A program made the translations under genes and the position numbers. Positions 1-55,207 of a stretch of 56,240 bases of DNA are shown here, in pieces; positions within the stretch are counted from its first letter, which is position 1; the number at the start of each line of letters is the position of its first letter. Source of the stretch: an uncultured Candidatus Saccharibacteria bacterium (GTDB lineage Bacteria; Patescibacteriota; Minisyncoccia; Phycocordibacterales; GWA1-40-21); assembly GCA_964567825.1 (NCBI GenBank), contig CAZMNX010000004.1, forward strand, positions 1 to 56,240, in the 5' to 3' direction. Under the pieces are notes generated by a model that was given only the letters and a program-made list of their open reading frames with translations, was not told the origin of the DNA and ran no database searches.

Positions 1-82
1 AAAGTTTTATTTACGTAAAGCAATTGCTAGTGGAAAAGTCGAAATTCCACAAGAGGTTTACGATTATATAAACAATAATTAA
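1..82 (+). CDS. 3' end of a CDS truncated by the window edge
   Basis: Open frame from nt 2 (KFYLRKAIASGKVEIPQEVYDYINNN*) ending 4 nt before the next ATG. Confidence 0.5.
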   Translation, partial: KFYLRKAIASGKVEIPQEVYDYINNN

Positions 83-86
83 TAAT

Positions 87-482
87 ATGTTTTGTGAAAA
101 ATGTGGTGAAAAATTAGATAGTAAAGATAAATTTTGTGTTGGTTGTGGTAATTCTGTAAACAAAGAGAAAGAATTAAAGAATCATACTCTAAATAAAGAA
201 AATAAGTGGTGGGTGCGTTTATTTAGAGTAATTTATATTTTGCTATATATACCATTACCCTTTACTCTATATGGAGTATGGACGTCAAATGATGTTTACA
301 CTTATTATGATTATTATTCTAAAAAGAATATTTCCTACGGTTCGTTTGCAGATGCTTTTTGGTACTCACTATTAACTTTTGTGATTTGGGTGATTGTCTT
401 ACGATTAATTAAAATTTCTGTAAAGTATATAGCAATTGGTCAAAAACCTGAATGGGAGAAGGAGCTTAAAAAAATATATTAA
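87..482 (+). CDS. Zinc-ribbon membrane protein
   Basis: N-terminal CEKCG...FCVGCG, two hydrophobic helices. Confidence 0.8.
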   Translation: MFCEKCGEKLDSKDKFCVGCGNSVNKEKELKNHTLNKENKWWVRLFRVIYILLYIPLPFTLYGVWTSNDVYTYYDYYSKKNISYGSFADAFWYSLLTFVIWVIVLRLIKISVKYIAIGQKPEWEKELKKIY

Positions 483-483
483 T

Positions 484-948
484 ATGATTATATTTGGATG
501 GGGACATCAAACAATTAAGCAAATAGGGGTAGTTTTCAAACAAATTTGTGAACACTGTCATAATGAAGACTATTGGGTTTTGACTAGAATTATGACCTGG
601 TTTACAATATTTTTTATTCCAATTTTCCCTTATTCTATTAAATATTTTCTTAGTTGTCCTGTATGCAAGTATGGCTTAACGCTGGATGACAAACAAATTA
701 ATGAGATAAAGCCTTTGGCCGAAATAAATCAATCCTTAGTTGATGGTGAAATTACACAGGAGGAATATCAATTAAGAATACAAAAATTGAATAGTGGTCC
801 CGTTGAATCAATACCGGCAGAAATAAAAGAGGTTGAAATATTAACTGTGAAAGAAGATAGCTTGGTTTATTGTAGTCATTGTGGAAAAAATATTGATAAA
901 GATATTAAATTTTGTGGTGGCTGTGGAACTAAGGTTAATTTGAAATAA
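484..948 (+). CDS. Double zinc-ribbon protein (zinc_ribbon_15-like N-terminus)
   Basis: MIIFGWG start, CEHC...WFTIFFIP...CPVC, C-terminal CSHCG...FCGGCG; start moved to ATG 484, right after upstream stop. Confidence 0.8.
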   Translation: MIIFGWGHQTIKQIGVVFKQICEHCHNEDYWVLTRIMTWFTIFFIPIFPYSIKYFLSCPVCKYGLTLDDKQINEIKPLAEINQSLVDGEITQEEYQLRIQKLNSGPVESIPAEIKEVEILTVKEDSLVYCSHCGKNIDKDIKFCGGCGTKVNLK

Positions 949-953
949 TTACT

Positions 954-2462
954 ATGTTTTGCACTAATTGTGGTAATAAAATAAAAGATAATGAAGATTT
1001 CTGCACAGAGTGTGGAATGAGTATTATAAATAAAAAAAATAACCACAAAAATACTGAGGCTGAAACTGTCTCAACACCCAAAAAAGAAAATGAAGAACAA
1101 ATAAAAGCAGGGGGTACTTTACTGAAAAAGATAAAATTAAGTAAGAGAGAATGGTTTATAATTGGTATTATGGGAATAATAGTAATAATATTATTTTTAA
1201 TATATGGTTTTGAACCAACAAAAAAAATAAGCGCTGACGTCAAATCAGTTGTAAATATATGGTGTGATAATGAAGGTGGAGGGTCTGGTACCTTATTTAC
1301 AAATGACGGATTAATACTTACTAATAACCACGTAATCGAAGGCTCGACATATTGTCTTATCACTATACCCAATCCAGAGACGGGAAAAACTGAAGAAATA
1401 TATAAGGCATTACCCACCATAACTCCCGTATTAAGTAAGAAATATGACGTGGCCACTTTGAAAATAAGTGATATCTTTATTGACGAAGAAGGAGAAGCTT
1501 GGGGAACCTTTCCATTAAATTTATCTCCATTTGTTCTTCCTAAAACATGTGACACAAACAAAGCCTCAAAACTTGGAGACTCTGTGCGGATATATGGGTA
1601 TCCAGTTACGAGCGGTGGTTTTAATCTCACTATTACAGATGGAATAATTAGTAGTTTTACAGATGAAGGAGAAATACTTACCTCTGCCCAGATTGATAGT
1701 GGTAATTCTGGGGGGTTAGCTATTGACCAAGACGGTTGTTGGCTTGGAATACCATCCGCAGTTGTCTCTGGTGATTATCAAAATTTAGGAGTAATAATAC
1801 CGGGGAGTGTAGTTGAGTATTTTATTGAAACTGCTCCAGCTAAGTTAAACCCCATTGCAGATAATATTGATTATACTAAAGAATCCATTTATTCTCCTGA
1901 GGAAGAAGATGATGACAGTGTCTGTCAACGAGGTTTTGGGAAATATAGTGAATGGAGTGGAGAATATAACGATGAAGGAAATCCAACATGTACATGTCAA
2001 ACTGGGTATTCCTGGGATGCCAGTGGTGATTATTGTGCTTTAGGCACTTCCCTTCTAAAAGAATGTAGAGATAAATATGGATATGGAAGTTATTCAACTA
2101 CTGAAAATGGTAAGGCAGTTTGTGACTGTTCATCTGGTTATGTGTGGAATTTAGCTCAGACAGCTTGTGTTGTTGAACAAGAACCAGTCCTATCAAATGA
2201 CCAAATTTGTGCAAATGATTACGTTAATTCTCATTGGAGTGAGACTAATGATGGTTGTGATTGCAATACTGGTTATTATTGGGATATTAATGAAAATGGT
2301 GATGGTGGTGGTTGTTATACAAAAGAGGCCCTTAATCAATCCTGTAATAAGAGTTTTTCGAATTCCAAATGGGATGGAACCTATAGTGAGACTGATGGAG
2401 TATTTATTTGTGGTTGTAAGTCAGGGTATGAATGGAATACAGCTAGAACAGCTTGTAATTAA
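954..2462 (+). CDS. Membrane-anchored trypsin-like serine protease with N-terminal zinc ribbon and C-terminal Cys-rich (EGF-like) repeats
   Basis: CTNCG..FCTECG; TM helix; triad motifs TNNHV, YDVA, GNSGG; repeats CxCxxGYxW. Confidence 0.85.
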   Translation: MFCTNCGNKIKDNEDFCTECGMSIINKKNNHKNTEAETVSTPKKENEEQIKAGGTLLKKIKLSKREWFIIGIMGIIVIILFLIYGFEPTKKISADVKSVVNIWCDNEGGGSGTLFTNDGLILTNNHVIEGSTYCLITIPNPETGKTEEIYKALPTITPVLSKKYDVATLKISDIFIDEEGEAWGTFPLNLSPFVLPKTCDTNKASKLGDSVRIYGYPVTSGGFNLTITDGIISSFTDEGEILTSAQIDSGNSGGLAIDQDGCWLGIPSAVVSGDYQNLGVIIPGSVVEYFIETAPAKLNPIADNIDYTKESIYSPEEEDDDSVCQRGFGKYSEWSGEYNDEGNPTCTCQTGYSWDASGDYCALGTSLLKECRDKYGYGSYSTTENGKAVCDCSSGYVWNLAQTACVVEQEPVLSNDQICANDYVNSHWSETNDGCDCNTGYYWDINENGDGGGCYTKEALNQSCNKSFSNSKWDGTYSETDGVFICGCKSGYEWNTARTACN

Positions 2463-2624
2463 TTTAATGATATGAATCTCAACGGGTTCAATTGATGTAT
2501 TAGATATAAAATTCACTACAAAAAGATGAAAGTAAAAGTGGTTTTGTCTTAGAAAAATAAAGGGTTTAAAATCTACTAAATTATGCTACACTATCAAAAT
2601 AGTGTCGTGTATTTATATAAACCT

Positions 2625-3329
2625 ATGGGAAATTTGACTTTGTTTGAACAAGAAATTTTAAAGGTGCTTGAAATGATAGAGTATCGTTGTGAAAGTACCG
2701 AAATACTAGACTCTGAGACAAAGTCTCTTGAGATTTTTTATACTGACAAGAATCGCCCACCCCTAGAGGAAGAACTCACTAAGATGGTTGTTATTGAAAA
2801 ATACCTTAAAAAAAATGGTATAAATTTTAAATTAACACATAATTTTATAGACGAACCAGAACGGTCAGATGGTTTTATAATGCTGGGAATAATTAAAGAT
2901 GAGAATATTAAAAATATTAAATCAAAAGTTTTAAAACTTATCTCCGAATTAAAAATAAAGGATAATAAGAAAAAACTAACACTTAACAAAGCCGGTAGTA
3001 ACCAAGAGATAAAACAACTCGAATTACTAGAAGATAAGACCACAAACAAGGGGGTTACTGTTTATATAAACGTTAAATACGATACACCTAGAAAATTTAG
3101 AAGAGGAAAAAACTGGGGGAAAATGTACGAACTCGCAATGGACCAGCGGGTACCATATAATAAAACTTTTTTTGATTATTTTAATTCGAATAATACAAAC
3201 CCTCTTTATACGAAAGAAGGGTTTAAAGTAACTAAAATCCTAAACAAGGAATATGATTATATTACTCCAAAAATAGAAATAAGAATTATCACACAAAAAG
3301 CTGTTACACAACGGCTTAAGTCTGCTTAA
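2625..3329 (+). CDS. Hypothetical protein, possible element-encoded DNA-binding regulator
   Basis: Long Lys-rich ORF; followed by phased GCTTAAG repeats and a terminator; function inferred only. Confidence 0.6.
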   Translation: MGNLTLFEQEILKVLEMIEYRCESTEILDSETKSLEIFYTDKNRPPLEEELTKMVVIEKYLKKNGINFKLTHNFIDEPERSDGFIMLGIIKDENIKNIKSKVLKLISELKIKDNKKKLTLNKAGSNQEIKQLELLEDKTTNKGVTVYINVKYDTPRKFRRGKNWGKMYELAMDQRVPYNKTFFDYFNSNNTNPLYTKEGFKVTKILNKEYDYITPKIEIRIITQKAVTQRLKSA

Positions 3330-3356
3330 GAAAACTTAAAATTGTGAATAACTTTT

Positions 3357-3385
3357 ATCCCCCTTTGAAAATAGGGGGATTTTTT
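3357..3385 (+). terminator. Intrinsic terminator
   Basis: ATCCCCCT-8 nt-AGGGGGAT followed by TTTTT. Confidence 0.8.
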
Positions 3386-3443
3386 ATTTAGCTTAAGAAA
3401 AATAAGCATTTTTTGAGTCATATAAAAAACATATGCTTAAACA

Positions 3444-3629
3444 ATGCAGATTGAAGATACAAAGGTCGGAGAATACCAAATCCTATACCAAAAAAAGTAT
3501 GGAAAAAGTATAGATAAAGCTCGTGCAAGAGACGAGCTTACTTCGCTCGTCTGCCTATTAGAAGCTGTTTATCAACACATTAATTCAATAAACTATGACT
3601 ATCAAAAAACAAATAAAACTAAATATTAA
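3444..3629 (+). CDS. Small hypothetical protein of the element
   Basis: 61-aa ORF first in the operon leading to the primase. Confidence 0.6.
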   Translation: MQIEDTKVGEYQILYQKKYGKSIDKARARDELTSLVCLLEAVYQHINSINYDYQKTNKTKY

Positions 3630-3930
3630 TTTTTCCCCAACGTTAGCCAGTGAAGGTTTAAAATCATTCATAGATAATACCGGTAATGTTCTTCGTACTG
3701 ATGATTTTTACCTTGCAGTGACACTTTTCCATACCGGAGCCAAGCTTTTATCAATTGAAAAAGATATCTCTGGTGTACAAATTTATACCTTTAAGAAAAT
3801 AATTAATATTGAAAGTGTAAGAGACGAATTATTCAGTGATTTATTTAAGGTTAGAGCTTTTTCTTTTCTGGAAAGTATAAAAGCTTTTGAAAAACTTATC
3901 AAGTCCGAACAAAATAACATAATAACATAA
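3595..3930 (+). CDS. Small hypothetical protein (DUF5659-like)
   Basis: TDDFYLAVTL motif resembles DUF5659 proteins that precede primases in mobile elements. Confidence 0.6.
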   Translation: MTIKKQIKLNINFSPTLASEGLKSFIDNTGNVLRTDDFYLAVTLFHTGAKLLSIEKDISGVQIYTFKKIINIESVRDELFSDLFKVRAFSFLESIKAFEKLIKSEQNNIIT

Positions 3931-3936
3931 AATTAT

Positions 3937-6042
3937 ATGACAGAAATAGAAAAATATTTAACAGAAAAAGGGATTACCTTTTATGGTGGGAATGAGGAGC
4001 TTATTACTAGATGTCTATTTTCAGACTGTGACGCTAATCACAAAGATAAAGACGGTCATCTATATTTTAGTAAAGAAACTTCGCAGTACCATTGTAAAAA
4101 ATGTGATGCCAGCGGTAATTTAAAATCTTTAAAGAAGTTTTTTGGTGATGATAAAGAAGTAAAAACATCAAAAAGCAAATTAAAATTAGAGGAAGTTGAA
4201 AGGTGTCAGAAAGCCTTAACACCAGTTATAACAGATTATTTACACGCCAGAGGGCTTACAGATGAGGTTATAAACTCACACAGGCTTGGCTATGGCTCCT
4301 ATTATGGTAATAGAATGTGGATAACAATACCCGTTAAGGATATAAACGGAAATTATAGCTTTCTAAAGCTTAGGGAGGACCCAGAACAAGGAAGTAAAAA
4401 AATGACGTGGCCAAGTGGTATAGAAGCACAGATATATGATTGGGATAGTTTATTGTTAGCTGAAAATCGTTTAGTAATTTGTGAGGGAGAAATGGATGCC
4501 TTATTATTAAAATCAAAAAATATTCCTTGTATCACAAATACTCATGGTGCAAAAACGGTTAAAGATGACTGGATGTTACACTTTAAAAAGGAAGTCGAAT
4601 ATTTTATCTGTTATGACAATGATAAAGCCGGAAAAGATGGGGCAGTAAAAATGGCAAATGCCTTGCTAAAGCATGGGTGTAATAAGATAAATATTATTAC
4701 CTTACCTGAAGTGGTCGGAGAAAAAGGTGATATTGGAGATTATATTATGAGGTTGAATTTACCAATTGATGACTTGTTTATAAAATATTCTATGCCTTTT
4801 CCAGAAAGAATTGATACATCAAAGTTCAAGGAAATTACCACCACAGAAGTAGCCCAGGTCTTAAATGCCACAATAAAAAAAGATGATGAGAATAAGATAG
4901 TCACCTTCCTATCTATGCTGACAACTTACACCGAAGACTCGCAGATGAATTTGTTCTTTAATGCCCCAAGCTCTACTGGTAAATCACATTTACCGTTATC
5001 AGTTGCTGAAATTTTTCCATTTGAAGATGTGATATCTCTCGCTTATTGCTCGCCGACTGCCTTCTTCCACGACCAAGGTCTTTATAATAAAGACAAAAAT
5101 GAAATTGTTGTAGACCTAGCAAGAAAGATAATCATTTTTACAGATATGCCGGACCAAGCATTAATATCAAGATTACGTCCACTTCTCTCTCATGACCAAA
5201 AGGAATCTAGGTTAAAGATAACTGATAAAGCACAAAGAGGTGGAAATAAGACTAAGAACGTGGTTCTACTTGGCTTCCCGAGTGTATATTTCTGTAGTGC
5301 GGAAATGAGGGTTGATGAACAAGAAAGCACAAGATTCTTAATGCTCAGTCCGTCTATTGAACACGAGAAGATATATCAGGGAGTAAAACAAGCTATACGC
5401 AAAGCCTCGGACAGTGAGAAATTTAACCAAGAGATAGATTCTGACCCCGAAAGGAATCTGCTTAAAAGTAGAATCCGTGCAATAAAACAAGAAAATATTT
5501 CTGATGTAAAAATTGAAGACATAGAATATATTGAAAAATTATTTTTAAAAGATGGAGAAGGGGTAAGGCCAAGACAACAGCGTGATATTAAAAAAGTCAT
5601 TTCAATTATCAAAGGATTAGCCCTATTAAATGTGTGGTTTAGAAAACGTGACGGTAATTATGTTTGGGCGTCAAAAGAGGACATAGATGTAGGCTTTGAT
5701 TTGTGGAATAAATTATCATACGGTCAAGATTATGGATTAGCTCCTTATTTGTTTGAGATATATTCAAAGATAATTATGTATCTTTGGAATCAGACGGACG
5801 AGACCTTTTCTGATTTTTCTAGTGTTACTAAGGATAAGAAAAAATACATAACCAGAAAAGAAATATTGAAGAGACATTTTGAGGTGTATAAAACCCCACT
5901 TGGAATGCAGAAACTAAGACAACAGATTCTTCCGCAGTTAGAGCAAGTTGGTCTTATTATGCAAGAAAGAGGTGGAGATGATATGAGGGAAATGGTTGTA
6001 ATTCCTCTTGAAACAGGAATGGAGGACGAGAATAAGATATAG
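3937..6042 (+). CDS. Primase-helicase (Zn finger + TOPRIM + P-loop NTPase)
   Basis: CLFSDC...HCKKC; ICEGEMD and CYDND TOPRIM motifs; Walker A APSSTGKS. Confidence 0.88.
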   Translation: MTEIEKYLTEKGITFYGGNEELITRCLFSDCDANHKDKDGHLYFSKETSQYHCKKCDASGNLKSLKKFFGDDKEVKTSKSKLKLEEVERCQKALTPVITDYLHARGLTDEVINSHRLGYGSYYGNRMWITIPVKDINGNYSFLKLREDPEQGSKKMTWPSGIEAQIYDWDSLLLAENRLVICEGEMDALLLKSKNIPCITNTHGAKTVKDDWMLHFKKEVEYFICYDNDKAGKDGAVKMANALLKHGCNKINIITLPEVVGEKGDIGDYIMRLNLPIDDLFIKYSMPFPERIDTSKFKEITTTEVAQVLNATIKKDDENKIVTFLSMLTTYTEDSQMNLFFNAPSSTGKSHLPLSVAEIFPFEDVISLAYCSPTAFFHDQGLYNKDKNEIVVDLARKIIIFTDMPDQALISRLRPLLSHDQKESRLKITDKAQRGGNKTKNVVLLGFPSVYFCSAEMRVDEQESTRFLMLSPSIEHEKIYQGVKQAIRKASDSEKFNQEIDSDPERNLLKSRIRAIKQENISDVKIEDIEYIEKLFLKDGEGVRPRQQRDIKKVISIIKGLALLNVWFRKRDGNYVWASKEDIDVGFDLWNKLSYGQDYGLAPYLFEIYSKIIMYLWNQTDETFSDFSSVTKDKKKYITRKEILKRHFEVYKTPLGMQKLRQQILPQLEQVGLIMQERGGDDMREMVVIPLETGMEDENKI

Positions 6043-6070
6043 TGTCAGACCCCCGGGGGTAAAAGATGAG

Positions 6071-6099
6071 TTCACTTTTAAAAGCAAAGATGATATAAT
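6071..6099 (+). promoter_or_regulatory. Sigma70 promoter of the recombinase
   Basis: TTCACT(6071-76)-17 nt-TATAAT(6094-99) with extended TG. Confidence 0.75.
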
Positions 6100-6105
6100 G
6101 TAGAA

Positions 6106-6222
6106 GCTAAACCACGAGATTAATAAAATCCTTATTTTTGTACCCAAAGATGAGGTAATAGTATCTTGTGGTTTAGCGATTACAGGATTTTAACTATTAC
6201 CTCTTCTTTGGAGGCAAAAATA
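6106..6222 (+). ncRNA. Structured 5' leader RNA of the recombinase (interleaved complementary segments covering the SD)
   Basis: 6106-20/6163-77 (15 bp, 1 GU), 6124-32/6184-92 (9 bp), 6144-62/6193-6211 (18/19), 6133-40/6215-22 (8 bp). Confidence 0.65.
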
Positions 6223-6223
6223 T

Positions 6224-7900
6224 ATGGAAAATAAAATTACATGGGCGATATATGTTCGTAAAAGTACAGAATCAAAAGATAGACAAATTCAGTCTATTGA
6301 TGACCAGATAAATTATCTAAAAAATACAGCGGAAAGAGAAGGCCTTAATGTTATCAAAATAATAAAAGAGGCAAAATCAGCAAAGAAAACGGGCCAACGT
6401 GAAGGATTTATTGAACTTTTAAATCTAATTGAGCAAGGAAAGATAAATGGTATTCTCACTTGGAAAATGGACCGGCTATCAAGAAACCCAATAGACAGTG
6501 CCTATATTCAAACATATCTTCAAGATGAGAAATTATTGTGTGTAAAGACTTCAGAAAAAGATTATCTACCAGAGGATAATGCAATTGTAGTTGGTGTTGA
6601 AAGTGGTTCAGCCAATCAATACATTCGTGATTTATCAAAAAATGTTAAGCGAGGTTTAATGTCAAAAGTTGAAAAAGGATGGTTTCCAAATATTCCTCCA
6701 GTCGGATATTTAAACTCTAAAACAAAGGAAAAAGGTAACGAGACGATAATTGTGGATGAAGAAAGGTTTAAAATTGTTAGAAAGATGTGGGACCTAATGC
6801 TCACTGGTACTTACTCTCCCCCACAAGTTCTTAGAATAGCCACAAGCGATTGGGGCTTGCGTACACCTATAAAGCGTAGGCAGGGTGGAAAACCCATCTC
6901 CCAAAGTGAAATATATAATATATTCAGTAATATTTTTTATACCGGATATTTTAATTACAGCGGTAAAACTTACCAAGGTAAGCACGTGCCCATGATAACA
7001 ATTGATGAGTACGACCGGGTACAAGTTATGCTTGGTAAAAAAGGCAAGCCTAAGATGCAAACTCACGTTTTTCCTTTTACTGGAATTATGAAGTGTGAGG
7101 AATGCGGGGCTAGTATCACCGCCTCTAGGAAGACTAAGCTTAATAAAACACTGGGAACAATTGAGACTTACACTTATTATCATTGCACCAAAAGGAGAAA
7201 ATATATTAAGTGTAATTCTAGACCAATCACTGTAGCTGAATTAGAAAAAAATATCACTGAAATTTTTCAAGATAATATGATTGACTCTGAATTTTATAAA
7301 CTAGGCTTGGAAACATTAAAAGGTATGCACAGTCTTGAGGTTGGTAAAAGACAACAAATATATGAAACCCAATTAAGAAATGTAGAGGAGACACAGAAAA
7401 AGCTAGACAGAGCATTAACATATCTCCTAGATGGAACAATTACTCAACCGCAGTATTCTTCACAAAAGAAAGAATTAGAAGAATCTTTGATAAAAGAAAA
7501 AGCTAAACTTAACGAGACTGAAGCTAGGGCAAAGAATTGGACGGAACTTACAGAAAATGTTTTACATTTTTCTTCTCTGGCAACGAAGGCCTTACAGAGC
7601 AATGACACAAAAATTCAAAGAGATATCTTTAACAGCATTGGTTGGAACCACAGGATAAACGCCAAAAAACTCTTTGTAGACCTACATTCTTGGTTCGTTG
7701 TACTTAAAAATGGTGAAAAAGAGCTTCTACCTAAAATTAAAGCGTTGGAACTGGGAAATATCCTTGACCCACAAAGAAAAAAGGAAGCTTTCGCCTCCAT
7801 TCTTCCGACTCTGTGCCGAGACCCAGGTTCGAACTGGGGACCCTTCCCTCTTCAGGGGAATGCTCTACCAACTGAGCTATCTCGGCATCGGTCTATTTAA
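6224..7900 (+). CDS. Large serine recombinase (resolvase + recombinase + Zn-ribbon)
   Basis: YVRKST catalytic Ser, DRLSRN, CEECG...YYHC; GGAGG SD at 6210; C-terminus encoded antisense to tRNA-Phe. Confidence 0.95.
   Translation: MENKITWAIYVRKSTESKDRQIQSIDDQINYLKNTAEREGLNVIKIIKEAKSAKKTGQREGFIELLNLIEQGKINGILTWKMDRLSRNPIDSAYIQTYLQDEKLLCVKTSEKDYLPEDNAIVVGVESGSANQYIRDLSKNVKRGLMSKVEKGWFPNIPPVGYLNSKTKEKGNETIIVDEERFKIVRKMWDLMLTGTYSPPQVLRIATSDWGLRTPIKRRQGGKPISQSEIYNIFSNIFYTGYFNYSGKTYQGKHVPMITIDEYDRVQVMLGKKGKPKMQTHVFPFTGIMKCEECGASITASRKTKLNKTLGTIETYTYYHCTKRRKYIKCNSRPITVAELEKNITEIFQDNMIDSEFYKLGLETLKGMHSLEVGKRQQIYETQLRNVEETQKKLDRALTYLLDGTITQPQYSSQKKELEESLIKEKAKLNETEARAKNWTELTENVLHFSSLATKALQSNDTKIQRDIFNSIGWNHRINAKKLFVDLHSWFVVLKNGEKELLPKIKALELGNILDPQRKKEAFASILPTLCRDPGSNWGPFPLQGNALPTELSRHRSI
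7814..7886 (-). tRNA. tRNA-Phe(GAA)
   Basis: GCCGAGA acceptor, TTCCC-CTGAAGA-GGGAA anticodon arm, GTTCGAAC T-loop. Confidence 0.95.
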
Positions 7901-7933
7901 TCATATTTGGGTAATTTTTTCCAGTATTTTATG

Positions 7934-8005
7934 TGCCCTCGGCAGGAATCGAACCTGCATCTAGGGTTTAGGAAACCCCCATCCTATCCATTGAACGACG
8001 AGAGC
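7934..8005 (-). tRNA. tRNA-Arg(CCT)
   Basis: GCTCTCG/CGAGGGC acceptor, GGGGT-TTCCTAA-ACCCT arm, GTTCGATTC. Confidence 0.95.
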
Positions 8006-8610
8006 TATAGTTTCGACTTCATTAAATCTATCACACTCATAATGATTTTGAAATACTTGGCACCTTTTTTGACCCTAACTCGACACATTCCGTGCTTCAG
8101 TTTTCCTGATTTTTTCCCGTGTAAAATATTCACGCCTCTAATTAAATTGACGGGGATACCGAGCGTTTTCGCCCAAAACGACTTAACTTTCAGGGGACTC
8201 AAATCTTCATAAATTCTTGCGGTAACTAATAAATCTTCAGTCTCAACACCAAGTTTTTTAAGGCAACTTACAAAGATTCTGATCAAATCTGGGTCGCTAT
8301 TTATAAGATTTAGATCGCCTTTACTTCCTTCGGCCCAGTACAAAGAAGCCAAAATTAAGATTTCTGACTGTGGCGATATTCTGCTAATAAGATTACCTGC
8401 CGTGATTTTTGATTTCTCCCAATCTTTTTCGGCCCTTCTAATACTACCAGTTTTTCTCAAATCAAAATCAACTTTAACATTCTTAATATAGCTGTAAATT
8501 GTCGTCTTGCCTCGTGGAACTAATTTACATATACCGTCTAGGCTTAGGCCACTTTTCCTTAATCTAACTATCTCGGCAACTTCCTCCTTGCTAGTTTTTG
8601 GCTTCCCCAT
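8005..8610 (-). CDS. HTH + LAGLIDADG-like endonuclease-family protein
   Basis: N-terminal HTH (IVRLRKSGLSLDGIC...GKTTIY), LASLYWAEGS LAGLIDADG-like helix, NSDP motif; TGTTATAAT 7 nt before ATG. Confidence 0.7.
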   Translation of the reverse strand: MGKPKTSKEEVAEIVRLRKSGLSLDGICKLVPRGKTTIYSYIKNVKVDFDLRKTGSIRRAEKDWEKSKITAGNLISRISPQSEILILASLYWAEGSKGDLNLINSDPDLIRIFVSCLKKLGVETEDLLVTARIYEDLSPLKVKSFWAKTLGIPVNLIRGVNILHGKKSGKLKHGMCRVRVKKGAKYFKIIMSVIDLMKSKL

Positions 8611-8673
8611 ACCGGCAATTATAACAAAACTACAATACCGTTCAAGGACAACAATCCAGTTCTAATCAAAAAA

Positions 8674-8913
8674 TTAGAGGCCAAGTAAACCAGCCACCTG
8701 CTCTTCATCAAAGCCAACCACGATATCTGTTCCAATTTGAATTACCGGCACGCCCATTTGATCGCTTTTCTCTACCATTTCTTTTCTTTTGGCCAAATCA
8801 GTGGCGACATTAAACTCTTCATACTTTACTCCTTTTTCCTTAAAAAAATCCTTCGCTAAATTACAAAAGTGGCAAGTAGGGGTTGAATAGATAGTGACTT
8901 TAGGTGTGGCCAT
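8674..8913 (-). CDS. Glutaredoxin / NrdH-redoxin
   Basis: YSTPTCHFC, GVPVI, VGFD. Confidence 0.92.
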   Translation of the reverse strand: MATPKVTIYSTPTCHFCNLAKDFFKEKGVKYEEFNVATDLAKRKEMVEKSDQMGVPVIQIGTDIVVGFDEEQVAGLLGL

Positions 8914-13151: not shown

Positions 13152-13158
13152 ACATTGC

Positions 13159-13517
13159 CTTCGTACCTATAAGCCGAATCCTGTCCTCCCGACTTTACGT
13201 CGAGATGTCTGACCATTTATCTAGGCCCACCATTACTGTTGGGCTCAAGCGGCACTTCCCTCGATTTCTCTCGGGACACGACCTTGCATTTAGGTAAGGA
13301 TTTAGCCGTTGCACTCCCTAAGTCACCTTAAGGATTCATCCCTCGTCGCTTTCGCTTCTCGGGATGCTGTCTTCTTTTCAAAAAACAGCGTCACTGTTCG
13401 CACCTCGCGTGTTACCACGGACGGGCGTTACCCGCTACCGGACTCCAAACTTGCGTTTGGAAATGTTCGGACTTTCCTCTCCGACGGTTACCGTCGGAGT
13501 AGTCAGCCGATACGGAG
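13159..13517 (-). ncRNA. rnpB: RNase P RNA
   Basis: 5' GAGGAAAGTCCGAAC and 3' ACAGGATTCGGCTTAT conserved P4 segments; CTCCGTATC/GGTACGAAG P1. Confidence 0.93.
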
Positions 13518-13565
13518 ACTTATTATTTATAACACAAAATTAGGATTATTACAAGCAAGATTATT

Positions 13566-27714: not shown

Positions 27715-28824
27715 TTATGGTTTTTCGGCATTATATATATCCTCCACCTCCTGTGCCGTCAGCGCCCGATTATATAATCGAACTTCATCGATAAAACCGT
27801 CAAAATAACCTTCCGTTCCGTGATAAAAAGCACCTACGAACCAAGAAGAGTCTGTTGTGTCAGTTAATGACGTTGAACTAACATTATTTCCAACACCATT
27901 TAAGTATAATTTTGCATTAGAGCCATCATAAACATAAGCAAAATTATACCATTCACTAAAATTTATGCCTGGTCTTAAATCACCATCGGCTTCAGCTCCA
28001 CCGACGCAATAAAGGCCATAATCACAATCATACGGTGAGAGGAAAACCTCAAAACCGGTAGTGGAACCATCTTCTGGATTGGCAGGCTCGTTTTCAGAAG
28101 AAACAATCCCCACATCACTGCCATAATACGGGCCCTGGAAAAACCACCCAACCACCGTGTATTCATCTCCTGAGCCGAAAACTGGAAGCCCGGGTATTTC
28201 GATAAAATCATTGAGGCCGTCAAATGTATATGCTTGCCCCACAACACCAACAGCAAGGGCTGGGCAAGCCTCACCACTACATGTTCCATCATAATTACCA
28301 ATATCATCATTCATGTTGCCGTCAAAAGTCCAATAGGCAATCGGACCATCGGAGACCTCGGGGTCGCCACCACCCGCGGCCTCAGTAACGCTGATCACGC
28401 CATTATCATCAATCAAAATATTTCTGACTAAATTTCCAGAGGTTAAGGTAATGGTGCCCGTCGCATTAGGGGTTCCAACTATCTTATTAAAGACTATAGA
28501 ATTAAGAGCGCTGGTGAGAGTCACGCCGCCGGTATAGGCATAAACTTCGTCCTGGGCCGGAACCTGTCCATAACTATTACCCTGAAATAAAACATAGCTG
28601 CCCGCAACCGAATTAAGATCAACACCAAACTTACTATCATTTTTTTGCAAAACAGCATAATGCCTAGCCCGCTGTAGAGTATTGATCAAATTATTCTGCT
28701 CCTCGTTTATAAGCTGGGAATAATAAAAATTTAAAGCAAAAGGGGCGGACAATAAAAAAATACCAGCCATCATCGCTACCACAATTAACAACTCAATCAT
28801 TGAAAAACCCTTGTTTAATTTCAC
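27715..28824 (-). CDS. Pilin fused to LamG/concanavalin-like domain
   Basis: KGFSMIELL; AYWTFD...FDGFIDEVRLYNRALT. Confidence 0.88.
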   Translation of the reverse strand: MKLNKGFSMIELLIVVAMMAGIFLLSAPFALNFYYSQLINEEQNNLINTLQRARHYAVLQKNDSKFGVDLNSVAGSYVLFQGNSYGQVPAQDEVYAYTGGVTLTSALNSIVFNKIVGTPNATGTITLTSGNLVRNILIDDNGVISVTEAAGGGDPEVSDGPIAYWTFDGNMNDDIGNYDGTCSGEACPALAVGVVGQAYTFDGLNDFIEIPGLPVFGSGDEYTVVGWFFQGPYYGSDVGIVSSENEPANPEDGSTTGFEVFLSPYDCDYGLYCVGGAEADGDLRPGINFSEWYNFAYVYDGSNAKLYLNGVGNNVSSTSLTDTTDSSWFVGAFYHGTEGYFDGFIDEVRLYNRALTAQEVEDIYNAEKP

Positions 28825-33051: not shown

Positions 33052-35733
33052 ATGAAAAATCATTTCAAAAATTATCTATCTAGTCTTTTGTTGTTCCTAG
33101 CTTTGATAATGATTTCTAGCTCCTTTAATTATTTTCTGACCCGTTACCAAGTAAATCTTACGGCAACCGCCTTTAACCCCGTGGACCTATCGAGTGACAC
33201 TTATAAGGTTGCTTCAGGTTTTGCCTGGAATGATAGTGTTGGCTGGCTAAACTTTGGCACCTCAACCAATAGGGTGGCGGGTCGAGTCTATGTTTCAAAT
33301 ACTGATTTACGTGGCTATGCTTGGGGAGAAAATATTGGTTGGGTATCCCTTAATTGTCTAAATGATGGATCGTGTGGTAATTCGTCTTATGCGGTAGCAA
33401 ATAATGATGGAACCGGTGAACTATCCGGCTATGCTTGGGGAGAAAATATTGGTTGGATCGATTTTGCCCCAGCGGGCGGTGGAGTAACTATTGACCGAAC
33501 AAGCGGAGCTTTTTCTGGCTATGCTTGGGGAGAAAATATTGGTTGGATTTCTTTCTCTGGTACTAGTCCAGATTATGGAGTTACAACAGGATGGAATAAT
33601 CCGCCAGGAGGTATTTCCCCTCAGGCCTGTACGTACACCTACACCGACTGGTCAGCTTGTATAAACGGCAATAGATCAAGGACGGTTCTCTCTCAAAATT
33701 ACACAAGCTGCTCAAACCAAGGTGTCCTAAACGAAAGCTGTACTGCTACCACAACACCGATTGTGGTTAGTATTTCCCCTACTACTTTGACAGCTTTCAT
33801 TAACAGCACATCAACCTTTAGTGCCACAGTCACTGGCACAACCACAACTAGTAAAACCTGGAGTATTCTTGAGGGTCAAGCCGGTGGAACAATCAGCACT
33901 AGCGGTTTATACACCGCCACAGGAACTCCCGGAACCTACCACATAGTTGCCAAATCTACGGCCAGCACAACAGCCAGTGCCAGCGCAACTGTGACTGTTG
34001 TAAGTACTCCAATAGTGAATGTCAGCCCCGCCTCATCGACAATATTTGTCGGCGAACAAAAGCAACTTTCAGCTACCGTCACGGGTGTAGAAAATAAATC
34101 GGTTGACTGGATATTAACACCAATAGACGAGAGCAACTTCTATGGAACGCTCACCAATGATGGACTCTATACGGCGCCAAAACAAGCAGTAAACGTCACC
34201 ATAATTGCCCGCTCAATTGCTGATGCAAATCAATCTGATACGGCAAATATAATTGTCAAACTTAGACCGGCAACAACTACGCCGACAGTAGTAGACGCAA
34301 CTTCAACTGCCAGCCTCTCAAAATCAGATTTACAACCGGGCGAAGCCTTTACAATTAATATTGAAGGCTGGAAGGCAAATAATGAAGTGGAGGTTACTTT
34401 GCACTCAACTATCGTTGTCTTGGGTAAAATTACGACAGATTCAAACGGTAATGCCAGAGGCTCATTTAATATACCGGCCAACACTGAACCCGGTACTCAC
34501 GCTATTCAAGTCGAGGGTACTGATTCTGATAACCTCAATCGAATTGTAACCCTAAACATAAACATCCTACCGTTGGATAACAATGACGATAATGATGACG
34601 TAACTACTGGGACAGTAAACACCAATACTAACAACGGTTCTGAAAATGGCAGTTCTTCAAATAATTCCGCTGTTGAAAAAATAACCAAAGCTTTAGATGT
34701 AAGCACCTTCGTGGCTAACAATATTACAATACTGGGCACAACTACCGAAAAGGTTTTGCTCCAAGCCAAGAAAATAATTGAGAGCAAGCCGGGTGATGTC
34801 GCGGTTAAAACCTTTACCACCGCCGGTGTGGTTGGTGGCGGTATTGCCGCCTCATCGGTGTTTATCCTGAATCCAGCCGTAGCCGCCGATTTGCTCTTTA
34901 TGCCATTTAGACTTTGGGGTCTCTTGCTTAGTGCTCTTGGTTTAAAAAAGCGTCGCCGACCTTGGGGAACAGTATATGACAGCGTTACCAAACAGCCGAT
35001 CGATCCAGCCTACGTCACCCTGACCAATCTTGAGTCGAAAAAGGACGACACCTCAATCACTGACCTAGATGGCCGCTATGGCTTCCTTGTTCCAACTGGC
35101 AAATATACTCTAGCTGCCAACAAAACAAATTACACCTTCCCTTCCAAGAAACTTGCCGGCAAAAAGTCTGACGAACTATACGGTGATTTGTATTTTGGTG
35201 AAGAAATTAATGTTCAAAGTGGAGCCGTAATTAGCCGAAACATTCCGCTTGATCCAGTCAATTTCGATTGGAATGAATTCGTTAAAGGTAAGAAAAAATT
35301 AATGAAATTCTATTCAAGACGCGAAAAAATCACTAGAATTATCACTAACTGGATTTTCCGAATCGGCTTCGTGATTTCCCTTATTTCACTAATTCTTGTA
35401 GCAGCACCATATAACTTAATTATCTTTGGTCTTTATATCATCTTAAGTATTCTTAGAAAATTCGGCCTCCGCCAGAAAGCTTTTGGTTCTTTAACTGATA
35501 GTAATAATAACCCTCTGTCCTTTGCAATTATTCGAATAATTTCACCTGATCTTAATATTGAAATAACCAGCAAGGTCGCTGACAAAATTGGTCGTTACTA
35601 CTGCTTGGTCCCTAAAGGAAAATATTACGTCAAAATCGAGAAGAAAAATGATGATGAAAGTTATTCCCTAGTTCACACTTCTCCCGTCTTTGAGGCGGCC
35701 GATGGCATAATAAATAAAAGCTTTGTTAGCTAA
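33052..35733 (+). CDS. Large surface/membrane protein: GYAWGENIGW repeats, TSP1-like motif, Ig-like domains, carboxypeptidase-regulatory-like C-terminal domains
   Basis: Signal/TM; 4 GxAW repeats; CTY..WSAC..G.RSR; Thr-rich Ig-like repeats; WGTVYDSVTKQPID...TDLDGRYGF. Confidence 0.8.
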   Translation: MKNHFKNYLSSLLLFLALIMISSSFNYFLTRYQVNLTATAFNPVDLSSDTYKVASGFAWNDSVGWLNFGTSTNRVAGRVYVSNTDLRGYAWGENIGWVSLNCLNDGSCGNSSYAVANNDGTGELSGYAWGENIGWIDFAPAGGGVTIDRTSGAFSGYAWGENIGWISFSGTSPDYGVTTGWNNPPGGISPQACTYTYTDWSACINGNRSRTVLSQNYTSCSNQGVLNESCTATTTPIVVSISPTTLTAFINSTSTFSATVTGTTTTSKTWSILEGQAGGTISTSGLYTATGTPGTYHIVAKSTASTTASASATVTVVSTPIVNVSPASSTIFVGEQKQLSATVTGVENKSVDWILTPIDESNFYGTLTNDGLYTAPKQAVNVTIIARSIADANQSDTANIIVKLRPATTTPTVVDATSTASLSKSDLQPGEAFTINIEGWKANNEVEVTLHSTIVVLGKITTDSNGNARGSFNIPANTEPGTHAIQVEGTDSDNLNRIVTLNINILPLDNNDDNDDVTTGTVNTNTNNGSENGSSSNNSAVEKITKALDVSTFVANNITILGTTTEKVLLQAKKIIESKPGDVAVKTFTTAGVVGGGIAASSVFILNPAVAADLLFMPFRLWGLLLSALGLKKRRRPWGTVYDSVTKQPIDPAYVTLTNLESKKDDTSITDLDGRYGFLVPTGKYTLAANKTNYTFPSKKLAGKKSDELYGDLYFGEEINVQSGAVISRNIPLDPVNFDWNEFVKGKKKLMKFYSRREKITRIITNWIFRIGFVISLISLILVAAPYNLIIFGLYIILSILRKFGLRQKAFGSLTDSNNNPLSFAIIRIISPDLNIEITSKVADKIGRYYCLVPKGKYYVKIEKKNDDESYSLVHTSPVFEAADGIINKSFVS
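33313..33546 (+). repeat. Three identical 30-nt in-frame repeats (GGCTATGCTTGGGGAGAAAATATTGGTTGG)
   Basis: Copies at 33313, 33427, 33517. Confidence 0.9.
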
Positions 35734-46783: not shown

Positions 46784-47116
46784 TCAGGTCATCCCCGGCA
46801 GATTACGGTAGCACCACTCCATGTTACGGAGCACGTCGATATGATCGAACTTGACGAGCGTTCCGGTCGGCAAGCGTGAGCCGCGCGCCGACTTGTTGCC
46901 CTTGGTTCGCAGATGGGCGAGAACCGCCCCGCCCTTGAACACTCGGACTACGTAGAGCCTGGAGCCCCGCGCCACCGTCCCCTTTTCATACCGCGTAAAG
47001 GTTCGGCTACCACTGTGAACCGGCGCCCGATTCTCCACGTAGAGCCACATGCAGCGCCGACTTACCCGCGCCACATAGCCGACTCCAGCGTCACTGCGTC
47101 TCAGACTACTTTTCAT
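46784..47116 (-). CDS. Hypothetical basic protein, GC-rich
   Basis: 110-aa ORF with upstream purine-rich RBS-like stretch and downstream hairpin. Confidence 0.5.
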   Translation of the reverse strand: MKSSLRRSDAGVGYVARVSRRCMWLYVENRAPVHSGSRTFTRYEKGTVARGSRLYVVRVFKGGAVLAHLRTKGNKSARGSRLPTGTLVKFDHIDVLRNMEWCYRNLPGMT

Positions 47117-52786: not shown

Positions 52787-52787
52787 C

Positions 52788-52958: not shown

Positions 52959-52969
52959 GGATGCTTGAT

Positions 52970-53417: not shown

Positions 53418-54068
53418 TTACAACCCGAGAGCCTGAATGGCGAGCGTCGCCACGCCCTCTCTGGTTTGACTGCCGTCGATACGGTAGACTGGCACCCCCA
53501 TGGTGTTCAACCGCTGAACGGCCGGAATCTCCACCGAATCGTACAGTTCCTGCCGCCGGGCCATCGCCCCATCGGTGTCGTCGATGCGATTTTCACGCTT
53601 CGCCCGTTCCCGCATCCGATCGAGCCGCGTCTGTGCTGGCGTATCGACAAAAAGGCAGACGAGTTCGTACGGATAAGGAAAGTCCCGCATCAGCCGTGTG
53701 AATTCCTCGGCCTGCACCGGCATCCGAATGACTCCGTCGACGATGATGTCGGAAATGCCGTGCACCAATTTCTGGCATTCGCCGCCGAAAACCTCTCGGC
53801 AAACTGCCTGTTCGGCGTGATTGCCACTCTTGATCTGCTCAGCAACCATCGCTCCAACCACCGGATCATCGCGCTTCGCCAGAAGGCCGGCACTCATCGA
53901 GATCACTTGCGGTTCCAGGGGCCGATCCGGAACATGACCAGCGGCCAATTCCCGCTGGAGATACGCCCCAGACAAGTGGCCCTTAAGCCGGCTCACGACA
54001 TTGCCCTTGCCCGAGCAAGGACCACCGGCAATGATGATCACCTTAAAGACTCTTGGTTCCAAGTTCAA
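53418..54068 (-). CDS. Adenylate/nucleoside monophosphate kinase family protein (GC-rich)
   Basis: GGPCSGKG, IIVDG..R..QA, R.DD. Confidence 0.85.
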   Translation of the reverse strand: MNLEPRVFKVIIIAGGPCSGKGNVVSRLKGHLSGAYLQRELAAGHVPDRPLEPQVISMSAGLLAKRDDPVVGAMVAEQIKSGNHAEQAVCREVFGGECQKLVHGISDIIVDGVIRMPVQAEEFTRLMRDFPYPYELVCLFVDTPAQTRLDRMRERAKRENRIDDTDGAMARRQELYDSVEIPAVQRLNTMGVPVYRIDGSQTREGVATLAIQALGL

Positions 54069-54162: not shown

Positions 54163-54188
54163 CAAAAAATCCCCGAAGGGACTTTTTG
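54163..54188 (-). terminator. Terminator after tRNA-Asp
   Basis: CAAAAAGTCCC-TTCG-GGGATTTTTTG. Confidence 0.85.
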
Positions 54189-54191: not shown

Positions 54192-54498
54192 TGGCGCGGG
54201 CGATGGGTGCTGACCCCACGGCCTCTCCCGTGCACTAATTCACTATTTTCATAGTGGCATGGACTATATCTTTATCCTTCCCTTTCGGGTGAGGATACTC
54301 CGGTATCTAGTCTCTACGGCGCTCCTTCGCTTCGCTCAGGACCTACGGTCCAGGCTACTTTAAAGGTTCCCACGGTGTTCGCATATCTGCCTCATCGGCT
54401 GACTTAGCCTTCACCGTTATCCCAGAGAGTTTCAATCCGCATCTCGGCGGAAAGCTGCACGTCTACAGGGGAGTGCTCTACCGTTGAGCTACGCCCGC
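54192..54498 (-). tRNA. tRNA-Asp(GTC), intron-containing (exons 54498-54465 and 54232-54192)
   Basis: GCGGGCG/CGCCCGC-G-CCA; spliced arm CTCCC-CTGT^CAC-GGGAG; atypical T-loop GTCAGCA. Confidence 0.92.
54233..54464 (-). ncRNA. Group I intron (232 nt, no ORF) at tRNA position 35/36
   Basis: P1 CUGU/GCAG with U.G at the 5' splice site, P10 GUG/CAC, P7 elements GTAGAGACTA and AAGATATAGTCC, terminal omega-G. Confidence 0.92.
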
Positions 54499-55166
54499 GT
54501 GGCGATAAATTTCTCAAAAACTATGGCCTTTCTTTTTAAGAATAAACCATCTCCTTTGAGATCTATACTATTATACATAAAATCATATAATTTCAAAGCA
54601 TCTTTGGTACTATAAGATAAACGACAATAATTCTTCTTATTTTTTATTATTGAGCCCCCAACTAATCCAATGATTCTTAATTTATCTTTTAAAGTAAGTA
54701 AAAAATCTAAAGAACAAGAGGTGAAAGCACAAAGAATCGCTAAATCTGGCCTTGCTCTGGTTTTGTGTGTGTACCCCATCCAAACATTACCGTCGCCATC
54801 AAAATAACCACGAACAAAATCAGCAAAATATTTCTTAGGGATATTTGGTACAAAAAGACTTTTAGTTTTATTCTCTCTGTAACCAAGCCTGTTTAAATCT
54901 TCGCACATTTCCTTGCTTCCTATCTGCAAACGATATAAATTTCTATCATTCCCCTTTCCAATTCTCTCACCTATTTTATGTTCTGCACCGACACACTGTC
55001 TAATCTTATAAATCAAATCTTTATCGGTAATCTGAATGCTCCAAAAACTAGCTCCGCGTTTATTTACAGTAATATACCCATCCGCTGCGAAAAATCCCAA
55101 GACATAAGCCATCTCTGGCGTCCATTTTTTAAAAAAATCTTTATTTACTTTCCTGTAAATTGGCAC
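54489..55166 (-). CDS. Free-standing double-motif LAGLIDADG homing endonuclease
   Basis: AYVLGFFAADG and FVRGYFDGDG motifs; stop codon within tRNA-Asp 5' exon. Confidence 0.9.
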   Translation of the reverse strand: MPIYRKVNKDFFKKWTPEMAYVLGFFAADGYITVNKRGASFWSIQITDKDLIYKIRQCVGAEHKIGERIGKGNDRNLYRLQIGSKEMCEDLNRLGYRENKTKSLFVPNIPKKYFADFVRGYFDGDGNVWMGYTHKTRARPDLAILCAFTSCSLDFLLTLKDKLRIIGLVGGSIIKNKKNYCRLSYSTKDALKLYDFMYNSIDLKGDGLFLKRKAIVFEKFIATRA

Positions 55167-55172
55167 CCATTC

Positions 55173-55193
55173 ATTATATCACGTGACAGGAGA
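55173..55193 (-). promoter_or_regulatory. Extended -10 promoter (TGATATAAT) of the endonuclease overlapped by a tRNA-Asp anticodon-site mimic
   Basis: TCTCCTGTCACGTGA vs spliced tRNA TCCCCTGTCACGGGA (13/15); TATAAT 6 nt before GTG. Confidence 0.7.
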
Positions 55194-55207
55194 TTATACT
55201 AGACAAT

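Follow-up and report, generated by a model that had tools for sequence, protein, structure and literature searches.

Why do two protein-coding genes of one small bacterial genome close their reading frames inside the transfer RNA (tRNA) genes that follow them? The question is raised by a stretch of 56,240 bases, called the window here, which is the entire contig C4 of an uncultured Saccharibacteria genome (G000; 710 kb in 20 contigs, about 40% G+C). Gene 1 and gene 2, both encoded on the minus strand of the window, each end in a TAG that shares bases with a tRNA gene. A preliminary description of the window had read this as a recurring design, in which tRNA processing removes the stop codon of a LAGLIDADG-type nuclease gene and so limits nuclease levels, with the tRNA possibly dependent on the nuclease promoter. 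The reading favoured here, with somewhat better than even confidence, is that both are free-standing LAGLIDADG-type homing endonuclease genes lodged in the 5′ leaders of single-copy tRNA genes.

Gene 1 (8610..8005, minus strand) is an open reading frame (ORF) of 201 amino acids with an ATG start and a stop TAG at 8007..8005. The tRNA-Arg(CCT) behind it on the same strand spans 7933-8005 according to ARAGORN and 7934-8005 according to Rfam, and the G of the stop codon, at 8005, is its nucleotide 1; the coordinates of the ORF and of both tRNA calls agree on this shared base, as first described. Gene 2 (55166..54489, minus strand) encodes 225 amino acids from a GTG start and ends in a TAG at 54491..54489. 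ARAGORN and the Rfam tRNA model both fail to call the tRNA downstream of it, because a group I intron, overlooked in the preliminary description, lies inside. The 5′ exon of this tRNA-Asp(GTC), nucleotides 1-34, occupies 54498..54465 (minus strand) and matches an intronless tRNA-Asp of a same-genus genome at 100%. The intron, 232 nucleotides at 54464..54233 (minus strand), sits in the anticodon loop between the second and third anticodon bases, and the 3′ exon follows at 54232..54192 (minus strand), where 54232..54194 correspond to nucleotides 35-73, again at 100%, and the CCA end, read by eye, is encoded. Nucleotide 1 of the tRNA is therefore 54498, and the gene 2 stop falls on nucleotides 8-10, as had been claimed. 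Among the 35 tRNAs of the genome, tRNA-Arg(CCT) is single-copy, with no second found, and there is no second tRNA-Asp besides the intron-split one.

Gene 2 matches the Pfam model LAGLIDADG_3 over two stretches (E 9.2e-13, 48.7 bits against a cut-off of 22.5) and reaches 22.6 bits with LAGLIDADG_1, just under the cut-off of that model. Residues D29, G30, D123, D125 and G126 are invariant in 28 aligned members of its family, and both acidic motifs are kept; by sequence, gene 2 is a two-domain LAGLIDADG endonuclease, for which cleavage and homing are predicted. The earlier assignment of both genes to the LAGLIDADG type stands for gene 2 on Pfam evidence, but gene 1 has no such Pfam call, and for it the assignment depends on the fold. 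Pfam gives gene 1 only a weak helix-turn-helix match (HTH_7, E 0.0035), and its family profile matches I-DmoI (E 3.5e-4). An AlphaFold2 model of gene 1, with a predicted local distance difference test score (pLDDT) of 91.5, has the order alpha-beta-beta-alpha-beta-beta-alpha in residues 80-200. A structural search with this model (VIA-align) placed I-DmoI first (Z 7.5, root-mean-square deviation 2.8, 83 residues aligned), followed by WhiA, intein endonuclease domains, I-Vdi141I, E-DreI and I-CeuI, and LAGLIDADG folds made up nine of the top 12 chains. In the family motif LYWxEG, Y91 and G95 are invariant, and E94 and K97 are found in at least 90% of members. We call gene 1 an N-terminal helix-turn-helix joined to a single LAGLIDADG-fold domain (residues ~77-201), a modelled architecture from which nuclease activity would follow.

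Proteins of the gene 1 type probably act as dimers. A homodimer modelled through the LAGLIDADG helix scored 0.66 against 0.00 for the best of three controls, a difference that likeness to solved dimers may explain; of proteins solved as one-chain pairs 20 of 30 attained this mark, and of those solved as single chains one of 23 did. The dimer runs showed 100% contact agreement and a partner pLDDT of at least 87, with an interface at residues 77-94 in which E94 faces E94. Profile comparison of the gene 1 and gene 2 families (hhalign) gave a probability of 1.7, that is, no relation, and a tblastn search of both proteins against the rest of the genome returned no paralogue, all other matches having E of at least 0.79.

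Placement beside tRNA genes

Both proteins were searched against 60 relatives and the home genome (61 genomes in all), which yielded 101 matches, fragments included. Genes like gene 1 occur in 37 of the 61 genomes and genes like gene 2 in 26, with up to five such genes in one genome. In 84 of the 101 homologues a same-strand tRNA has its nucleotide 1 at -41 to +53 nucleotides from the first base of the stop codon, four tRNA-Asp genes missed by ARAGORN (L001, L003, L007 and L050) having been placed by eye. The stop overlaps the tRNA in 47 of these 84, precedes it by 3-12 nucleotides in 24 and lies farther off in 13; 37 of the tRNA-abutting genes thus have a stop of their own, 3-53 nucleotides upstream of the tRNA. 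Among the other homologues, seven start just after a tRNA, five run towards a convergent tRNA-Ile(TAT) and end 5-191 nucleotides short of its 3′ end, three lie at a contig end and two are placed otherwise, one of them being the front half of a split gene. Counting the 12 further matches that abut a tRNA in another orientation, 96 of the 101 touch some tRNA. The arrangement extends beyond these relatives: a profile of the gene 1 family detected members in 70 genomes out of 301 sampled evenly across the phylum, and all 30 loci returned had a same-strand tRNA at -12 to +43 nucleotides from the stop, with overlap in 15. The suspicion of a recurring arrangement, raised from two instances, is borne out by these counts.

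The association is specific. On a tree of 90 full-length proteins, 78 rows could be labelled with a tRNA, three of them as convergent tRNA-Ile(TAT) cases. The 23 tRNA labels required 22 changes, the minimum possible, against 57-62 changes in the five label shuffles printed. With 23 labels and only 22 changes, each clade serves one tRNA species.

The frequency of overlap was compared with that of ordinary genes, a check set beforehand. The control set comprised same-strand ORFs of at least 100 amino acids, in the home genome and the fetched loci, that end no more than 150 nucleotides upstream of a tRNA or no more than 45 nucleotides inside it; the ORFs were sorted with the profiles of both nuclease families, and some pairs involve second tRNAs farther downstream. 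Overlap was found in 35 of 74 nuclease-like pairs, with 22 of 74 lying 3-12 nucleotides away, and in four of 76 pairs with other ORFs, so that it is far commoner at nuclease genes than chance would give. Most of these four ordinary overlaps are spurious: one lies in a spacer between a 16S gene and tRNA-Ile, one runs through masked N, and one apparently has a composition unlike that of proteins; the fourth is a 125-residue ORF before tRNA-Cys. In the home genome, 22 other same-strand ORFs end a median of 43 nucleotides before the tRNA, and genes 1 and 2 are the only real genes whose stop overlaps one. The spacer case just mentioned, a third overlap in this genome, is that of a 117-residue ORF with tRNA-Ile(GAT); lying behind the 16S gene, it was discarded as non-coding.

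Overlap itself is less constant than proximity. The stop overlaps the tRNA in 42 of the 75 full-length genes with a same-strand tRNA, and on the tree this state changes at least 17 times (shuffle mean 24.8); six of the 23 tRNA-specific clades hold both overlapping and non-overlapping genes. Very close relatives at tRNA-Gln differ, with the stop at nucleotides 13-15 of the tRNA (-12) in some and 24-25 nucleotides upstream (+24 or +25) in others. The stop offsets cluster at +2, -7 and -12, which correspond to a TA completed by G1 of the tRNA, to nucleotides 8-10 and to nucleotides 13-15. The tRNAs of the home genome offer stop triplets at nucleotides 8-10 in 16 of 35 and at nucleotides 13-15 in eight of 35; only two of the 35 have an early stop in the third frame. 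The overlap state is not what is kept, and the stop taken from the tRNA appears to be less a built-in brake than a consequence of close docking. On the simplest reading, selection keeps the gene flush against the tRNA and the frame closes on whichever stop the tRNA offers.

Docking also takes other forms. Some genes of the tRNA-Ile(TAT) clade end 5-9 nucleotides from the 3′ end of a convergent tRNA, and a clade linked to tRNA-Leu(CAA) begins right after its tRNA instead of ending before it; these geometries, which occur within single clades, were seen at loci L057, L072, L086, L055 and L056 and at L043, L046 and L049. Separately, the intron mode of ARAGORN located anticodon-loop group I introns in many tRNA genes of relatives, namely those for tRNA-Thr(GGT), tRNA-Thr(TGT), tRNA-His, tRNA-Phe, tRNA-Met, tRNA-Trp and tRNA-Ile(GAT). 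The intron-bearing loci include L037, L068, L089, L137, L143, L158, L163, L169 and L175, with Rfam intron scores of 56.1 bits at L089 and 69.5 bits at L137, and several of the intron-bearing tRNAs have a nuclease gene 14-37 nucleotides upstream.

Gene loss, introns and promoters at the two sites

Neither gene is housed in an intron or intein; each adjoins a conserved gene and occupies its site in some relatives but not in others, as is expected of free-standing homing endonuclease genes. They belong to two large families, and at a given site close relatives have an intact member, a decayed one or none. At the tRNA-Arg(CCT) site, a 63-nucleotide promoter region and gene 1 together fill exactly the interval from the stop codon of an upstream glutaredoxin gene (8676..8674) to nucleotide 1 of the tRNA. 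In G038, which has no nuclease gene there, the glutaredoxin TAG shares its G with tRNA-Arg(CCT), the identical one-base overlap; at the empty site of G020 the glutaredoxin stop lies 29 nucleotides before the tRNA; and in G025, G041 and G047 pieces of the nuclease gene, with internal stops or as fragments, precede it.

The tRNA-Asp site shows the same variation together with that of the intron, full-length homologues of which occur in 13 of the 61 genomes. An intact gene accompanies the intron in G000, G014, G017, G026, G034, G036, G057 and G027 (the last at a contig end), a truncated gene in G023, and a short remnant in G009, G013 and G050. An intact gene precedes an intronless tRNA-Asp in G020 and G054, a remnant does so in G003, G004, G005, G006, G012 and G025, and G018 has the intron with no gene trace seen. 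Of 14 intron-bearing genomes, 12 thus carry the gene or a remnant, a figure inflated by relatedness; the fourteenth, G052, was not inspected upstream. The nuclease ORF has decayed in at least nine genomes with the tRNA kept, and the exons of G000, G003, G004, G005 and G012 are identical across 73 nucleotides. With 37.9 bits (E 1.7e-7), the intron of the window falls short of the gathering score of 50 set for the Rfam model RF00028 (Intron_gpI); the homologous introns of three relatives attain that score, with 51.3, 50.8 and 50.3 bits. The intron strand contains no ORF of 40 or more amino acids within 54233-54464. A hairpin with a T run lies after the tRNA at ~54184..54163 (minus strand), recognized by eye only and not called by the consensus scan. 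The tRNA-Asp itself has GTCAGCA as its T-loop rather than the usual TTC-type loop, besides its encoded CCA end; the ARAGORN intron search misses tRNA-Asp in G000, G009, G013 and G036 and finds the variants with a standard loop.

Each gene has a promoter-like sequence directly before its start codon, as the preliminary description had noted, and this layout is conserved in orthologues. The promoter of gene 1 (8618..8645, minus strand) consists of TTGAAC, 16 nucleotides and a TATAAT preceded by TG, with 10 of 12 consensus matches; TGTTATAAT is followed by 7 nucleotides before the ATG. The mRNA of gene 1 would be leaderless, with the -10 box ending 7 nucleotides before the ATG, as likewise in four Arg-type orthologues. 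Upstream of gene 2, a conserved block at 55203..55167 (minus strand) comprises a -10 box at 55198..55193, CCTGTCACG at 55190..55182 and TGATATAAT at 55181..55173, the last followed by 6 nucleotides before the GTG; nine of ten Asp-type genes have the box 6 nucleotides before a GTG, ATG or TTG. A leaderless layout peculiar to nuclease genes was considered and rejected, the layout being a common mode in this genome: a TG-extended -10 box lies 6-7 nucleotides before the candidate start in 64 of 485 ORFs of at least 200 codons, against three of 485 when the window of the scan is shifted by 11 nucleotides. The corresponding count for nuclease genes is 24 of 90.

The block before gene 2 is kept in all ten orthologues, and the sequence farther upstream is not conserved. 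Over 24 nucleotides the block can be aligned in register with the part of spliced tRNA-Asp that runs from D-loop to anticodon loop; 16 of the 24 positions match, and the match includes nine contiguous bases across the uninterrupted intron insertion site. The block may serve as an operator by which the enzyme detects its target, or it may be a relic of the insertion event.

A second promoter-like block (TTGAAA ... TATAAT) lies inside the last ~35 codons of gene 2, at 54596..54567 (minus strand), with its -10 about 72 nucleotides before nucleotide 1 of the tRNA. The -10 part is present in all 15 loci examined, decayed ones included, and upstream of the tRNA in seven of nine alleles, not being seen in G042 and G039; the TTGAAA part has been lost in some remnants. 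Five codons for conserved residues in the block are identical in ten orthologues (1.0), against a mean of 0.64 over 104 other conserved columns. The tRNA-Asp therefore seems to use a promoter inside the ORF tail, and the nuclease ORF is not protected from loss. It had been proposed that neither gene leaves space for an intergenic tRNA promoter; this holds for the intergenic space, but not for the ORF tail at tRNA-Asp. An internal tRNA promoter had been named in the preliminary description as evidence against its own proposal, and the block in the tail of the Asp gene is a sequence of this kind. In Arg-type genes, a -10-like stretch preceded by TG is conserved about 20 nucleotides before the tRNA. 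The protein sequence is conserved there too, so that the two constraints are not separable.

In the comparison of assembled metatranscriptome contigs with positions 52700-56200, contigs from three runs of one freshwater study that are identical to the window cover only 54196-54503. This is the unspliced tRNA-Asp, from 5 nucleotides before nucleotide 1 to nucleotide 72; such contigs cannot show RNA ends. The runs contain small shares of the window sequence; the matches run at 100% over 308 and 293 bases, with none in the neighbouring 3 kb and none that covers or bridges the nuclease gene. It seems that either the unspliced precursor or the intron excised along with its exons persists as a stable RNA, though DNA carry-over is possible.

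Readings of the arrangement

On the favoured reading, the nuclease would cut the tRNA gene region of a genome lacking the gene, and repair would copy the gene in beside the tRNA. Ribonuclease P (RNase P) would cut everything 5′ of nucleotide 1 off the precursor, and the 5′ position would be harmless because the upstream mRNA is removed from the pre-tRNA in this way; processing would play the part that splicing plays for endonuclease genes borne in introns. Zero distance would be favoured because gene and target are then not separated. With no spacer left, the frame would run into the tRNA and end where TA meets G1, at T8-A9-G10 or at N13-A14-R15, and since these triplets already exist in the tRNA, the stop within it would be a frequent and unstable by-product. 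After RNase P cleavage, overlapping mRNAs would have no stop codon and would pass to transfer-messenger RNA (tmRNA) and SmpB; a non-stop mRNA is the logical consequence of such a cut, and it probably lowers the yield of nuclease but is not what is conserved. The first ribosomes behind the polymerase may terminate normally, before the tRNA folds and is cut. At tRNA-Asp, gene 2 most likely targets the intron insertion site and mobilizes the intron, moving it together with itself (collaborative homing), and the tail of its ORF may double as the tRNA promoter.

Several points weigh against this reading. Cleavage, target site and homing are all things that we infer from placement and family. No member of the gene 1 family among 47 matches a Pfam LAGLIDADG model at E ≤0.01; a Foldseek search of gene 1 against the PDB returned no LAGLIDADG match, its best hit being IspF (E ~0.01); and the fold score, with Z of 7.5 or less, is middling (under 8) and nearly equalled by WhiA, which is not a nuclease. 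In G020 and G054 an intact Asp-type gene stands before an intronless tRNA-Asp, where the escape of the resident tRNA from cutting is unexplained. Overlap is about ten times commoner than in other ORFs, and some selection on overlap itself is possible. The genomes are related and not independent, so raw counts overstate the pattern; by clade, an overlap is held in 12 of the 23 tRNA-specific clades. The end of the glutaredoxin gene can form a weak hairpin (8695..8679), so that tRNA-Arg could depend here on the promoter of gene 1.

A more far-reaching form of the same account is offered tentatively, as less probable than not. The 5′ leaders of tRNAs would be a third self-removing safe harbour for such genes, beside introns and inteins, with RNase P as the excising agent and with entanglements, intron mobilization and target sensing added. 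The dose of nuclease would be set by a race of ribosomes, RNase P and tmRNA; the ORF tail would become a tRNA promoter, a piece that could not be lost even after the death of the nuclease; and the Asp gene would mobilize an ORF-less intron and sense its target through the copy in its own promoter.

The design first proposed would have the stop placed in the tRNA for removal by RNase P, with trans-translation limiting the nuclease and with the need of the tRNA for the nuclease promoter preventing loss. It is unlikely as the selected function, for all that it draws on the same figures, namely overlap in 47 of the 84 tRNA-abutting homologues and in 35 of 74 pairs against four of 76. The machinery is present: a bacterial type A RNase P RNA is encoded at 13154-13518 (minus strand; Rfam, 107 bits), on the same contig as both nuclease genes, and the genes for tmRNA and SmpB adjoin each other on contig C10, so that the non-stop route is available. 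The non-overlapping genes also mostly end 3-12 nucleotides before the cut (24 of 84), and their mRNAs would end near the stop. At tRNA-Arg, promoter, gene 1, tRNA-Arg and tRNA-Phe form one apparent unit down to a terminator, behind only a weak hairpin after the upstream gene. Yet the overlap state has switched at least 17 times among 75 genes, six of 23 clades are mixed, the tRNA-Gln relatives differ, 37 of 84 genes keep their own stop, and an ordinary glutaredoxin gene overlaps tRNA-Arg(CCT) by the identical single base. Nor is retention by way of the nuclease promoter supported at tRNA-Asp, where the ORF has repeatedly been lost with the tRNA kept (at least nine genomes) and where the promoter-like block in the ORF tail, conserved at synonymous sites, retains its -10 in remnants. 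The throttle and the promoter-based retention are at best a side consequence, partly contradicted.

For the Asp gene alone, a cassette may have been inserted inside tRNA-Asp, bringing a replacement tRNA or its 5′ part and leaving the 24-nucleotide block before gene 2 as the stump of the old gene. The match of 16 of 24 positions in register, with the same 8-nucleotide spacing of its best parts and conservation in 10 of 10 orthologues, would fit such an origin, and the portion of a review that deals with I-TevII describes ORF flanks resembling the enzyme's target. This history is nonetheless improbable, since no counterpart of tRNA nucleotides 1-16 is seen upstream and conservation does not extend beyond the block on that side, and at tRNA-Arg the insertion lies simply between the stop of the upstream gene and nucleotide 1. 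A tRNA stump or mimic as a general feature of the families was rejected in a test of 69 loci, in which the upstream region was no closer to its own tRNA than to others (median rank fraction 0.53, the cognate on top in one of 69).

It is more doubtful still that these are domesticated DNA- or RNA-binding factors, either regulators of tRNA transcription like WhiA or, for gene 2, a maturase of the tRNA-Asp intron. WhiA chains score Z 7.4, 6.6 and 6.5 against 7.5 for I-DmoI, gene 1 has a helix-turn-helix domain, and gene 2 has a target-like block in its promoter and is associated with an intron. A resident factor is hard to reconcile with patchy presence and frequent decay at one and the same site, with up to five such genes in a genome, each at a different tRNA, with the conservation of the acidic motif residues, and with most of the served tRNAs having no intron. 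That nothing special is involved and genes of a compact genome simply end close to tRNAs can be set aside with near certainty: ordinary ORFs do end 9-24 nucleotides before several tRNAs, glutaredoxin overlaps tRNA-Arg in G038 and leaderless promoters are common (64 of 485 against three of 485), but 96 of 101 homologues touch a tRNA, ordinary genes of the home genome keep a median gap of 43 nucleotides with no real overlap, and clades match tRNA species perfectly.

Known systems and neighbouring DNA

The closest known case for free-standing endonuclease genes at tRNA genes is T4 SegB, a GIY-YIG homing endonuclease encoded in the T4 tRNA cluster. The site that it recognizes includes a tRNA motif that is conserved, and the enzyme spreads itself and the neighbouring tRNA genes by intronless homing (PMC2330249). 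SegB likewise is a free-standing gene among tRNA genes, but it belongs to another nuclease family and to a phage, and the abstract of that study mentions no fixed attachment to the 5′ end of a single tRNA. The families described here split into dozens of clades; each clade keeps to one single-copy tRNA of the cell, and many members share bases with it. In bacteria of the Candidate Phyla Radiation, LAGLIDADG endonucleases have been reported inside rRNA introns, mostly single-domain, in site-specific clades and with signs of homing (PMC11270868). These are enzymes of the same superfamily in the same phylum, but that study deals with genes in rRNA introns, and its main text has 0 occurrences of the word tRNA (PMC11270868). 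The gene 1 family differs further in its extra N-terminal helix-turn-helix and in escaping the Pfam LAGLIDADG models. In a search of the literature that covered main texts, neither endonuclease genes docked at the 5′ ends of tRNAs in these bacteria nor bacterial non-stop mRNAs arising from tRNA excision were found to have been described.

Collaborative homing, as outlined in the relevant part of a review, involves free-standing enzymes whose target is the insertion site of an intron. The Asp locus resembles it in having an ORF-less intron, an insertion site suspected as the target, and an intron that would protect the copy carrying it. It is unlike it in that the host gene is a tRNA, the endonuclease gene lies in the 5′ leader, 34 nucleotides from the intron, and a copy of the insertion site lies in the endonuclease's own promoter; cleavage of the target is predicted only.

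Mitochondrial transcripts are punctuated by tRNAs, at which they are cut, with stop codons completed after cleavage. There, as here, the 3′ end of an mRNA would come from tRNA excision, and the stop is shared with or cut by the tRNA boundary; the present case differs in lying on a bacterial chromosome with an RNA-based RNase P and in being confined to one class of mobile gene, and the window genes gave no evidence of stop completion by tailing. I-TevI represses its own synthesis through an operator that resembles its homing site. Gene 2 is similar in that a target-like sequence overlaps its own promoter, but the block may instead be a relic of insertion.

If the favoured reading is true, it shows how selfish nuclease genes persist in tiny, streamlined genomes, by riding on essential single-copy tRNAs at a position that is cleared during RNA processing. 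Many "hypothetical HTH proteins" beside tRNAs in these bacteria would be explained as a divergent LAGLIDADG family, and the roughly two dozen clades, each apparently specific for one tRNA gene, would be a natural set useful for studying the evolution of specificity. The loci would also furnish a concrete example, from bacteria, of an mRNA whose 3′ end may be set by tRNA excision and which may then feed into trans-translation, and they suggest how tRNA introns without an endonuclease of their own may still move.

The remaining features of the window lie around the two loci. In the apparent transcription unit of gene 1, tRNA-Phe(GAA) follows tRNA-Arg at 7813..7886 (minus strand; ARAGORN and Rfam), and a terminator-like hairpin with a T run, found by the consensus scan only, lies behind it at 7783..7798 (minus strand); the unit of promoter, gene 1, tRNA-Arg and tRNA-Phe likely ends at this hairpin. 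On the plus strand, a large serine recombinase of 558 amino acids with Resolvase, Recombinase and zinc-ribbon domains is encoded at 6224-7900, its last ~25 codons running antisense through tRNA-Phe, and positions 1-6200, to the left of it, are poorer in G+C (0.28-0.38). The recombinase region looks like an element integrated at tRNA-Phe.

Near the other locus, the stretch 53000-54170 reaches a G+C of 0.60 in a contig of 0.39 and contains a P-loop kinase-like ORF (54068..53418, minus strand) that weakly matches AAA_17 and ADK. The stretch separates tRNA-Asp from tRNA-Thr(GGT), two genes only 69 nucleotides apart in G020 (L009), and is probably foreign DNA inserted after the tRNA. Smaller G+C spikes of 0.49-0.56 occur at 46801-47200, 28001-28400, 33601-34000 and 42001-42400, without an Rfam match at the gathering level.

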